Shown piece after piece: positions 17,388-19,712 of a DNA stretch of 64,000 bases. The stretch comes from Candidatus Latescibacterota bacterium. Lineage in GTDB: Bacteria > Latescibacterota > UBA2968. The position numbers were made by a program, and so were the translations under genes. The notes under the pieces were generated by a model. It was not told where the DNA came from. It did not search any database and saw only the letters and a program-made list of their open reading frames with translations. The stretch spans positions 926,399 through 990,398 of the forward strand of contig OZ251458.1 in the NCBI GenBank assembly GCA_965242535.1, in the 5' to 3' direction. Numbering within the stretch: position 1 is the stretch's first letter; each line of letters starts with the position of its first letter.

Positions 17388-17428
17388 TTAGAAAACCCCG
17401 CACTCATTGGCACGGGGTTTTGGGATGT
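17388..17428. terminator. Hairpin AAAACCCCG-12nt-CGGGGTTTT with flanking A/T runs; left copy of the 41-bp direct repeat bracketing the ATPase/Toprim cassette
   Basis: Perfect 9-bp stem with a T-run on both strands, so it could terminate bidirectionally. Identical to 19672-19712. Confidence 0.7.
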
Positions 17429-17443
17429 AAAACGATTCGATTC

Positions 17444-18304
17444 TCAACTGAATATGTCGTAGCCCCGATTCCTTTGCGACCACTGCTTTGCATCGGAGTA
17501 GAGTTGGGTTTGGCGAAAATCTTCGCTGTCGTACGCAAGACGCAGTGCAATGCCCAGTTCTTGAGGACTCCTCTTTTTGCTGGCCAAGCTTCCAAAGACC
17601 TTTCTCAAGCCAATGCCAAAGATCGCGATGAAGTCGTGCCCACAGCAGATTTGATACGGATCGTCGGTCGCATCTTCTACGAGTTCCGATAACCTGTCTC
17701 GAATCTCTGTCCTCTCTAATTGTGGTGGATTTTTTGTCAACTCAAAAACGTTATTTATCATTGTATCCATATCCATTTTTAACGAATTGCGGTCGACGAT
17801 TTTATCAAAATCAAGCCCCTTAAAGCGCAAGCGAAGATCATCGGTTACAGACAAGTGGCGGAGATGGCCTACAATCAGTGCTTCCTGCATCAGGGCATCG
17901 CGTACTCCTCGTTCTCCACCAGGGAAATTGCGAACTTTTGCTCTTGACCCCAACTCCCGCAAGACCGCGCTAAATGCCTTGGTTTTAACGATCATCATTT
18001 CGACATCGTGGTCGTCCGTAACGACTATATTCCGCGAAGTTGGCAACGAACCATCAACGTGTCCAAAATCGGCATCAACGATTCCCATGAAGCCCTGTAC
18101 GCCACCATGCGATTCGAGAATTTCGATGGCATCGAGAACATTCGTCTTACCCCAAGCAGGGATAATCTCCATTTCGGAGTCTTCGACAAATCGGTGGAAA
18201 AATTTCGCGTCATTATCTCCCTCAAGGATGAGCACGGGGCCTTTGTATGCGTCGCGTATGAGAAGAACTTTAGTGGCAATGTCGTCGCCTGTCTGATCCA
18301 TCAT
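17444..18304 (-). CDS. DUF4435/Toprim-like nuclease component (AriB-like) of a two-gene defence cassette
   Basis: 286 aa. Toprim-like Glu in LILEGDND and a DxD in VVTDDHD. ATG ATG start lies 1 nt after the upstream ATPase stop. GAGGAAGG ribosome-binding site. Confidence 0.65.
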   Translation of the reverse strand: MMDQTGDDIATKVLLIRDAYKGPVLILEGDNDAKFFHRFVEDSEMEIIPAWGKTNVLDAIEILESHGGVQGFMGIVDADFGHVDGSLPTSRNIVVTDDHDVEMMIVKTKAFSAVLRELGSRAKVRNFPGGERGVRDALMQEALIVGHLRHLSVTDDLRLRFKGLDFDKIVDRNSLKMDMDTMINNVFELTKNPPQLERTEIRDRLSELVEDATDDPYQICCGHDFIAIFGIGLRKVFGSLASKKRSPQELGIALRLAYDSEDFRQTQLYSDAKQWSQRNRGYDIFS

Positions 18305-18305
18305 G

Positions 18306-19643
18306 TTAGCCTTCCTCTGTACCTGCTAGCTGAACCATGAGGTCGCGCCGGTCGTGGATGATAGATGGAGAATGGGTAGCTACGAGGAAATCGAGGTCAG
18401 CCAACTTGGATATCTTAGCAATATCCTCGAGAAACTTTCTCTGCCATGTGACGTGAAGAGACAACTCTGGTTCATCTATGAGAATGAGGGAACCCGGCGA
18501 TGCCTTGAACAAAAGTCCGTATGTCAGGACAATTTCATGTTGCTCACCGGAGGACAGTGCTTTTGGAGGCACAATGGATCCATCGTGATCTGACTTAAAC
18601 ACGAAGCCCCTATCTTTATCTATCTCGAATTTCTTATATGAGAAACGCGAGTTGATAATCTCTTTGAACAGTTCTACTCGGCGGAGAAGTGGGTCGAATA
18701 CATCCAGTTTCTTTTGAACGTCATCGAGGTAGGCCCATAAAATTTTTCTTTCATTTTCTTCTAAACCTTCAGGGGTTAGAGGAACGGGAGCCTCAGCAAC
18801 AAGGAGACCTGCTTCCATCAAGCGATCTCTATATTTTGATTGACGGTTATATTCTTCCTGTATGCTCTCTTCTGTCGCTGTCTGAGGAAGCGCGTATGCC
18901 AAAAGCCGTTGGGGAAAAGAGCTATCTAAAGATGATCCAAGCTCACCGGATTCCCTTTGGCATTCCTTTATTCTCGATACCATATCCTCCGAGTATTGCT
19001 CTACCGTCACTCGTTGGACGGGAACTTCTCTCCTATATCGAGGCACAAATTCGCCATTTTTGTGCCTTGTAAAGAGTCTCTGAGTTTCAACAACGACAAT
19101 ATTGATTTGGTTTAATATGCTGTCCATTGCATCCGAAACTGAGGGGATGGATTCTCGAATATCAGAGGGTAGAAAGTGTCCGTAACGAAAAACGACCTCA
19201 TCAAAAGCCATGATCTCGTCCGTGATTTCATCATACCACTCAGATGGACCAATGCGTTCAATATGATCGATCATGCGTTCTAAGAGGCCGGCGGAATATC
19301 TTTTTAGCCTCTCCGGCACTCTCGAGGATACCGTATGCTCAATCGTTTTGTTTCCGAAACGATAGGTTAATTTTAGCTTTGCGGAATCCTTTGCCCCTTC
19401 TTTTTGGATTTGTCTAACTGTCAAGCTGCCTTTCGGATCGAAACGGACCACAATGCGGTCAAAGGGCGTATCGAACAATGAGTGAAACCGCCGTTTGAAG
19501 AGGTCATAGACGAGACGGAGAACCGTCGTCTTGCCGACGCCATTCCGGCCGTGGATGATAGTAATACGGTCGTTTTCCTTCAAGGGTATCTCGTGATCAA
19601 AATACCCGAACAGAGAGTGAATATCGATCTGTCTTATTTTCAT
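18306..19643 (-). CDS. ABC/SMC-type ATPase component (AriA-like; AAA_15/AAA_21-like)
   Basis: Walker A GRNGVGKTT, ABC signature LSSGEQ, Walker B LILIDEPE and H-loop ATHSP. ATG at 19643 with a GGAG ribosome-binding site. The 164-codon upstream extension in the ORF track is read-through antisense to the TPR gene. Confidence 0.75.
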   Translation of the reverse strand: MKIRQIDIHSLFGYFDHEIPLKENDRITIIHGRNGVGKTTVLRLVYDLFKRRFHSLFDTPFDRIVVRFDPKGSLTVRQIQKEGAKDSAKLKLTYRFGNKTIEHTVSSRVPERLKRYSAGLLERMIDHIERIGPSEWYDEITDEIMAFDEVVFRYGHFLPSDIRESIPSVSDAMDSILNQINIVVVETQRLFTRHKNGEFVPRYRREVPVQRVTVEQYSEDMVSRIKECQRESGELGSSLDSSFPQRLLAYALPQTATEESIQEEYNRQSKYRDRLMEAGLLVAEAPVPLTPEGLEENERKILWAYLDDVQKKLDVFDPLLRRVELFKEIINSRFSYKKFEIDKDRGFVFKSDHDGSIVPPKALSSGEQHEIVLTYGLLFKASPGSLILIDEPELSLHVTWQRKFLEDIAKISKLADLDFLVATHSPSIIHDRRDLMVQLAGTEEG

Positions 19644-19671
19644 GTCCGTCTCCAATTGTCTATTTGCACTT

Positions 19672-19712
19672 TTAGAAAACCCCGCACTCATTGGCACGGG
19701 GTTTTGGGATGT
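19672..19712. terminator. Hairpin and T-run identical to 17388-17428 (right copy of the direct repeat)
   Basis: Same 41-bp sequence. Lies 26 nt downstream of the TPR gene stop. Confidence 0.7.

Follow-up and report, generated by a model that had tools for sequence, protein, structure and literature searches.

Within the 64,000-nt stretch of Candidatus Latescibacterota contig OZ251458.1 analysed here (hereafter the window), two genes resembling those that encode AriA and AriB of the anti-phage system PARIS lie between a gene encoding a TPR protein and an operon containing mdh-like and DSD1 genes. Both are on the minus strand: the first encodes an AriA-like ABC ATPase (18306-19643; 445 aa, 51.6 kDa) and the second an AriB-like DUF4435/Toprim protein (17444-18304; 286 aa, 32.3 kDa), with a single nucleotide between the TAA stop codon of ariA and the ATG of ariB. 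An initial prediction made from the sequence alone (the original prediction) had described the strand of the ATPase gene, the 1-nt gap and the 286-aa length of the second protein correctly, and had made the ATPase one residue too long (446 aa); a database protein of 445 aa, P0101, is 100% identical to it. The pair is bracketed by two copies, 100% identical to one another, of a 41-bp hairpin-forming repeat (TTAGAAAACCCCGCACTCATTGGCACGGGGTTTTGGGATGT; 17388-17428 and 19672-19712), exactly at the coordinates predicted, and only two open reading frames (ORFs), both encoding defence proteins, are present between them. The same gene order, with a gap of 1-4 nt, is found in related loci from other assemblies (L082, L083, L085, L087, L088, and L089; L and P numbers denote such loci and proteins throughout), and the operon structure is established.

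The ATPase contains every motif listed for it in the original prediction (GRNGVGKTT at residue 32, LSSGEQ at 363, LILIDEPE at 386, and ATHSP at 422). The residues that they contribute (Walker A K38, signature LSSGEQ at 363-368, Walker B D390/E391, and H-loop H424) are invariant across 56 AriA homologues, and the conservation of catalytic residues is established. The protein matches the Pfam families AAA_21 (74.4 bits) and AAA_15 (72.7 bits, full length), both above the Pfam thresholds, and both the AriA and PtuA models of PADLOC. Its best PDB match by sequence is E. coli AriA (8v45/8ux9; E = 2e-16), to which it aligns collinearly, with K38 on K39 and D390/E391 on D392/E393, residues that are needed for PARIS function in E. 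coli (PMC11464382, PMC10802264). An AlphaFold2 (AF2) model (mean predicted local distance difference test score, pLDDT, 81.9) places four long helices (214-249, 258-277, 296-314, and 317-333) between the two ATPase halves, at approximately residues 214-333. A short four-helix coiled-coil has been described for AriA (PMC10802264), and the modelled insertion is a coiled-coil of this AriA type. When the model was compared with the PDB using Foldseek, the top 15 matches were all AriA chains (E = 3e-18 to 2e-13; template modelling (TM) scores 0.47-0.66), and the next fold group was retron PtuA (E = 8e-12).

The second protein matches DUF4435 in Pfam (PF14491; 52.3 bits, E = 8.4e-14, profile positions 4-219 of 238, again above the Pfam threshold) and only the AriB model in PADLOC (E = 6.1e-21). 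E28, G29, D32, D77, A78, D79, H99, and D100 are invariant in 39 of 39 AriB homologues, and the five acidic residues among them (E28, D32, D77, D79, and D100) form an E-x3-D, a D-x-D, and then a later D. The spacing appears to mirror that of the acidic residues E26, D30, D88, E90, and E122 of E. coli AriB (PMC11464382), which would make the two sets equivalent. Of the two Toprim motifs named in the original prediction, the glutamate of LILEGDND (beginning at residue 25) is the invariant E28; the canonical DxD, which had been placed in VVTDDHD (residue 94), is probably D77-A-D79 within VDADF instead, and TDDHD is a second acidic cluster. The AF2 model (pLDDT 93.4) has a C-terminal helical domain, and its only significant fold matches in the PDB are AriB chains, 8ux9_A and 8v46_D, both aligned over their full length (318-336 aligned columns, TM 0.44-0.58; for 8ux9_A, E = 8.5e-6 and TM 0.58/0.55).

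The published detection rule for PARIS asks for AAA_15 at 32 bits or more, or AAA_21 at 27 bits or more, together with DUF4435 at 27 bits or more, encoded by genes that lie together (PMC9122126). In the window the corresponding scores are 72.7, 74.4, and 52.3 bits, from adjacent, co-oriented genes. Pfam, PADLOC, and PDB fold matches all agree with the PARIS-like ABC ATPase and Toprim/DUF4435 pair that had been predicted, and family and fold membership is established: the pair belongs to PARIS on all testable criteria but one, the matching of the Toprim site residue by residue. It is a very divergent new member of a family that is itself already known, and NCBIfam contains no specific model for either protein. 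PARIS has been found in about 5% of genomes (PMC9122126), and AriB homologues at 65-92% identity to that of the window are common in the ENA and Logan assemblies.

The cassette is of foreign origin. Its GC content is 46.5%, compared with 57.6% for the window and 58-63% for the flanks, and GC at third codon positions (GC3) is 0.47 for AriA and 0.52 for AriB, compared with 0.67-0.75 for neighbouring genes; this clear deviation in GC and codon usage, of which the lower GC had been anticipated, recurs in every lineage examined. In a search of one genome per species, the closest relative of the mdh-like protein came from a Candidatus Latescibacterota metagenome-assembled genome, L002 (88% aa identity). 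There and in L003-L005, genes encoding a propeller protein, a tautomerase, TPR, mdh, and DSD1 form a conserved housekeeping row in which TPR is followed directly by mdh and AriAB is absent, consistent with the predicted insertion between TPR and the mdh-like/DSD1 operon. The 120-nt TPR-mdh spacer of L002 contains a single homologous hairpin (GAAAACCCCGTGCCAAAGTGCGGGGTTTTCTAAGT), so that the empty site with one hairpin copy that the original prediction had called for exists.

Occupied versions of the site were found in several relatives. L082, with flanks 98-99% identical to those of the window in amino acid sequence, has the window-like arrangement with a repeat of 35 bp, and because it is an independent assembly the arrangement is not an assembly artefact. 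L085 (flanks 89-94% identical) has AriAB at the same site with the mdh-side hairpin only, and a low-GC, tRNA_anti-like OB-fold segment (L085 4166-4507) is fused in frame to the C-terminus of TPR. L086 and L089, two contigs from one sample (mdh of L089 94.7% identical over 75 aa; TPR approximately 75-81%), contain a remnant of the OB-fold segment (2386-2484 and 3825-3923, respectively), AriAB, a tandem 1.26-kb module, and a single hairpin before mdh. The module (L086 5951-8698 and L089 6280-9046) is a unit of approximately 1.26 kb repeated in tandem at 85-100% identity between AriB and the hairpin, and its ORFs have no Pfam match. A role for the OB-fold segment as a third PARIS component was rejected, as neither the window nor the loci at a second genomic site described below contain it; the segment probably came along as a passenger in the original insertion. 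In L086, ariA (2562-4996) is split by an insertion sequence (IS) of the DDE_5 type, and the gene is intact in the sister contig L089 (4001-5338; 98-99% identical), which shows ongoing inactivation of the system.

The cassette has therefore been at this site since before the window, L082, L085, and L086/L089 lineages split, or has entered it repeatedly; it is neither private to the window nor recent. The original prediction had held that a cassette syntenic and compositionally native across related genomes, with the duplicated hairpin present everywhere, would speak against a foreign element. Synteny is indeed seen in L082, L085, and L086/L089; the composition is not native, and the hairpin is duplicated only in the window and L082. 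Together with the second site described next, these loci form a natural series (one-hairpin empty, one-hairpin filled, two-hairpin filled, IS-disrupted, and a second site by a methyltransferase gene) that is useful for understanding how a row of housekeeping genes takes up a defence cassette and how the cassette is then reshaped there.

The second site was recognised through the L002 genome, in which AriAB is missing between TPR and mdh and a pair 70% identical to that of the window is encoded at another place (L083), 3' of a gene for a large N6_N4 methyltransferase and beside GmrSD. L083 (1-8621), L087 (728-10523), and L088 (1-5855) represent this same site, with AriB proteins 70-74% identical to that of the window. 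The AriAB genes lie directly 3' of the gene for the 900-930-aa N6_N4 methyltransferase and beside either GmrSD or a 1249-aa SIR2_2 protein (SIR2 in L087). Company of this kind is established for the second site, which is a defence island in which PARIS sits next to a probable restriction-modification enzyme.

Both 41-bp repeats read as hairpins in the direction of the genes. Copy A (19672-19712, minus strand) begins 25 nt past the TPR stop codon and ends 28 nt ahead of the AriA start codon, and copy B (17388-17428, minus strand) lies 15 nt past the AriB stop codon. A degenerate copy C (17295-17348, minus strand), consisting of the hairpin and its 3' flank, is in tandem with copy B directly upstream of the mdh start codon (17276). 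No further copy of the 41-bp sequence is present in the 64-kb window, even with 3 mismatches allowed, and none appeared in 100 shuffles. In minus-strand RNA each 41-bp copy forms a 12-bp stem with a 6-nt loop (copy A, -17.6 kcal/mol, z = -3.0; copy B, -20.1 kcal/mol, z = -4.4), and two of the stem pairs are G.U, formed only in the minus-strand transcript; between lineages the stem is invariant and the loop variable. The hairpin may, from its sequence, act as a terminator. A simple terminator scanner did not call copies A and B, whose short U-run (UUUUCU) is taken up in pairing with the A-run ahead of the stem; it flagged copy C as a weak terminator-like site at 17348-17331. Rfam gave no match across positions 14000-24500 of the window, which places the hairpin outside the known RNA families, and a search of JGI metagenome contigs did not find the hairpin pattern.

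In all of the cassette-bearing lineages examined, a counterpart of copy B separates AriB from mdh, directly after AriB in L082 and L085 and past the tandem module in L086/L089, and copy C is present in L082 and absent from L085, L002, and L001 (a scaffold described below). The TPR-side copy occurs only in the window and L082. Since L085 and L086/L089 lack it, duplication is not an obligatory by-product of insertion, and what the hairpin marks is the insertion point. The original prediction had proposed a terminator that was duplicated on insertion or used as the recombination site; the hairpin does lie at the insertion point, and "duplicated on insertion" is just one of several possible histories.

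Junction alignments assign different surroundings to the two copies. The spacer and the 5' flank (..ATCC) of copy A resemble the native context in L002. Copy B is followed by native mdh-side sequence (beginning CTAAGTACG), and the spacer that precedes it is homologous to the AriB-hairpin spacer of L085. In L082, copy B has a cassette-type 5' flank, CACACTC, as in L085, and the repeat is 35 bp; in the window the copy-A flank stands in place of CACACTC, making the repeat 41 bp. The simplest explanation, judged from the aligned junctions, would be a gene conversion between the copies that extended their identity from 35 to 41 bp.

Recombination has also reshaped AriA. Nucleotide identity between the window and L082 is 97-100% in the flanks, across AriB, and over the C-terminal half of AriA, and falls to 38-56% across 19460-19260. 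The corresponding hypervariable residues 72-120 of AriA exist in two types, type I in the window, L089, and P0102-P0105 and type II in L082 and L085. This allelic mosaicism is established, and the swapped types show intragenic allele exchange by recombination. In the AF2 model the segment lies on the surface of the N-terminal ATPase lobe, is rich in beta-hairpins and modelled in part with low confidence, and ends in a basic stretch (R113, K115, and R116). The pore of E. coli AriA that has been implicated in the trigger and in the AriB interaction is lined by R116 and R119 (PMC11464382); the resemblance of the basic stretch to these pore residues is a lead and not a result, the numbering of the two proteins being in register just to residue 71. 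We regard residues 72-120 as a candidate specificity module.

With good though not complete confidence, we interpret the window pair as a PARIS-family (AriA/AriB) anti-phage cassette that was acquired horizontally and sits in the TPR-mdh spacer at a native hairpin. The hairpin would be the native stem-loop of this spacer, and the cassette would have entered at it. Most likely, the incoming AriAB DNA carried its own hairpin as its 3' flank and recombined in or at the resident one, either by a single crossover of a circular intermediate or by homology-anchored illegitimate joining just past the resident hairpin; later gene conversion would then have made copies A and B identical over 41 bp. The route of recombination is one that we infer, and the reverse order of events, in which a two-hairpin arrangement came first and copy A was lost on arrival of the OB-fold DNA, is equally parsimonious with the loci compared. 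The bracketing by hairpins is a genuine and tidy signature of the junctions, but probably arose incidentally when recombination took place at a native stem-loop, and not through a new mobility mechanism.

Several observations weigh against this interpretation. Identity to E. coli AriA and AriB is only 13-19% (13-14% for AriB), TM scores are moderate (0.55-0.66), and the equivalence of the catalytic residues of AriB rests on their pattern. Neither phmmer with window AriB nor a 39-sequence profile reached the AriB entries of the PDB by sequence; these searches reached only generic Toprim proteins (1t6t, RNase M5), and an attempt to bridge the gap through a Yersinia phage homologue likewise gave no sequence match. 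The viral contigs of IMG/VR contain no relative of the AriB clade. Copy A leaves only 28 nt ahead of the AriA start codon, and no promoter belonging to AriAB is evident upstream of AriA. AriAB occupies the same site with one hairpin in L085 and L086/L089, so the duplication may have come later, and the loci compared provide no root from which to read the direction of change. As for expression, the TPR-mdh gap of only ~30 nt in L003-L005 suggests that TPR and mdh form an operon, in which case AriAB may be read through; attenuated read-through from TPR may, as a speculation, be how AriAB is expressed.

The two hairpins may have had another history, in which the TPR-side copy is unrelated to the insertion. 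The cassette may first have entered between TPR and a single hairpin, the TPR-side copy arising later in the window/L082 lineage by local duplication or by recombination with an empty-site allele, and being kept because it restored termination or attenuation after TPR and insulated a toxic operon. We consider this a serious minority possibility: L085 and L086/L089 have one hairpin and a different left junction, at which low-GC OB-fold sequence is fused to or trails TPR; the tandem copy C indicates that local duplication happens at this very spot; and the mosaic AriA alleles indicate frequent recombination at the locus. However, the native context of copy A, with its L002-like spacer and 5' flank, could not be regenerated by local duplication of copy B, and, depending on the branching order of the L085, L089, and window lineages, the window-type arrangement could equally be ancestral. 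That the 41-bp repeat is instead a target-site duplication or att site, produced by a transposase, integrase, or HUH/Y1 enzyme acting in trans, seems very improbable. In its favour, direct repeats flank the inserted DNA exactly, IS elements are active nearby in relatives (DDE_Tnp_1 beside DSD1 in L082 and DDE_5 inside AriA in L086), and L001, a fragment from a near-identical strain, has a different rearrangement that breaks within the hairpin's 3' arm. Against it, L001, a metagenome scaffold of 4.2 kb, could be a chimera, there is no recombinase gene between the repeats and there are no terminal inverted repeats besides the hairpin itself, the hairpin is not dispersed in the window and was not found in the JGI metagenomes, and a repeat of 35-41 bp far exceeds usual target-site duplications.

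The other alternative concerns function: the pair could belong to the wider OLD/Gabija/Septu-like ATPase and Toprim superfamily and work unlike PARIS of E. coli. It might, for example, respond to a different trigger, cleave DNA rather than tRNA, or constitute a plain toxin-antitoxin addiction module. PtuA models score as well as AriA on the C-terminal half of the ATPase, and the lack of a specific NCBIfam family, the 13-14% identity of AriB to its E. coli counterpart, and PDB searches that end at generic Toprim proteins all fit such a difference. We nevertheless think it unlikely, because the partner is a DUF4435 protein and not an HNH nuclease, the ATPase and Toprim proteins are not fused, and no helicase is adjacent. 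Similarly unlikely, in our estimate, is a reading that joins the two recombination signals at this locus, in which the hairpin would serve as a recombinase-independent landing pad and AriA 72-120 would be a swappable module, passed between alleles, specifying the trigger or the AriB partner. Defence cassettes with a copy of the hairpin as their 3' flank would be caught through recombination within it and end up with one hairpin on either side.

L001 (1-4240) is 97.6% identical to the window across mdh-DSD1, its mdh protein is 100% identical to that of the window, and its DSD1 gene is split into two ORFs; upstream it contains a GFO_IDH_MocA gene and repeats instead of AriAB and TPR. It could reflect a genuine rearrangement, which would hint at fragility of the hairpin, or be a chimera in an assembly of low quality. 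Established classes of mobile unit were also considered as identities for the cassette. An IS, transposon, or integrative element was rejected on the basis of the missing transposase or integrase gene of its own, the missing terminal inverted repeats, and the 35-41-bp repeat. A tRNA-targeting integrative element was rejected because the only tRNA gene (9783-9869) is away from the insertion site, and an integron cassette was dropped because an attC site would not fit in so short a unit and there is no integrase gene in the vicinity.

Farther from the cassette, the window and L082 lose collinearity upstream of approximately 21221 (L082 1-3100 was the region compared): the place taken in the window by tautomerase and dockerin/beta-propeller genes is occupied in L082 by genes for a sulfatase and an asparagine synthase, and a dispersed-repeat copy (window 23908-23996) lies at the L082 breakpoint. 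Dispersed intergenic repeats of ~100 bp are present at 14593-14692, 23955-24051, 51344-51439, 58207-58304, and 63856-63946, with others at 2705-2773 and 13086-13138, two families in all. The ~100-bp family is 83-90% identical to L001 4138-4238 and the other is palindromic, of the GGGCGTAA type, which suggests that both are similar to miniature inverted-repeat transposable elements (MITEs) or repetitive extragenic palindromic (REP) elements.

To our knowledge, PARIS has been characterised only in E. coli. The window proteins share only 13-19% identity with the E. coli proteins, and we infer their mechanism by homology, including complex formation, trigger, tRNA target, and phenotype. By analogy, AriA would build a scaffold through head-to-head and coiled-coil contacts and keep monomeric AriB inactive. 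ATP-dependent binding of AriA by a phage protein, a role played in E. coli by acidic anti-restriction proteins including Ocr, would free AriB, which would dimerise and cut host tRNAs with its two-metal Toprim site; the resulting arrest of translation would abort the infection. An AriA hexamer that holds AriB, trigger-dependent release, tRNA cleavage, and the anti-phage effect have all been described for the E. coli system (PMC11464382, PMC10802264).

Other known systems share parts of this design. OLD class 1 and class 2 nucleases and GajA of Gabija also use an ABC ATPase and a Toprim nuclease in defence (PMC9122126, PMC11464382), but combine them in one polypeptide, and Gabija additionally needs the helicase GajB. 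Identity with OLD or Gabija is ruled out for the window pair, which consists of two ORFs with a stop codon between them and neighbours TPR and mdh, with no helicase gene adjoining either. Septu and the retron PtuA-PtuB pair are closer on the ATPase side, since the C-terminal half of window AriA matches PtuA models and PtuA is its second-best fold group; in the fold comparison, however, PtuA falls behind AriA by 6 or more orders of magnitude in E-value (8e-12 versus a best of 3e-18), and the PtuA partner is the HNH nuclease PtuB, whereas that in the window is a DUF4435/Toprim protein. As the sole match of this partner is DUF4435 in Pfam and the AriB model in PADLOC, with no HNH match, a Septu/PtuAB identity is likewise ruled out. 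An abutting ATPase and DUF4435-like pair in the same order is present in the Yersinia P2-like phage vB_YenM_31.17 (L090 1706-3855), and the DUF4435-like member of that pair aligns with 95% of window AriB at 28% identity. Unlike the window pair, it is phage-borne, lying between the genes for a cI repressor and an integrase, and is annotated just as "ATPase" and "hypothetical protein".

The closest likeness is to PARIS of E. coli B185, which resides on a P4-like satellite (PMC9122126, PMC11464382, PMC10802264) and provides the best PDB fold match for both window proteins. Both systems consist of two co-oriented, almost abutting genes; both encode an ATPase of approximately 450 aa with AAA_15/AAA_21 matches, a Walker A lysine, a Walker B Asp-Glu pair, the ABC signature, and a four-helix insertion, as well as a DUF4435 partner of approximately 290-300 aa that combines an acidic cluster of apparent Toprim type with a helical domain at the C-terminus. 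They differ in that the window cassette belongs to an uncultivated Latescibacterota-like bacterium, has only 13-19% identity to the E. coli proteins and no evident promoter of its own, and occupies a chromosomal housekeeping spacer and not a phage or satellite hotspot. The window pair extends the range of the family to an uncultivated phylum and leaves the current understanding of PARIS unchanged; as a pair that keeps the fold and the catalytic motifs at such low identity, it provides a useful test of which features of PARIS are universal.

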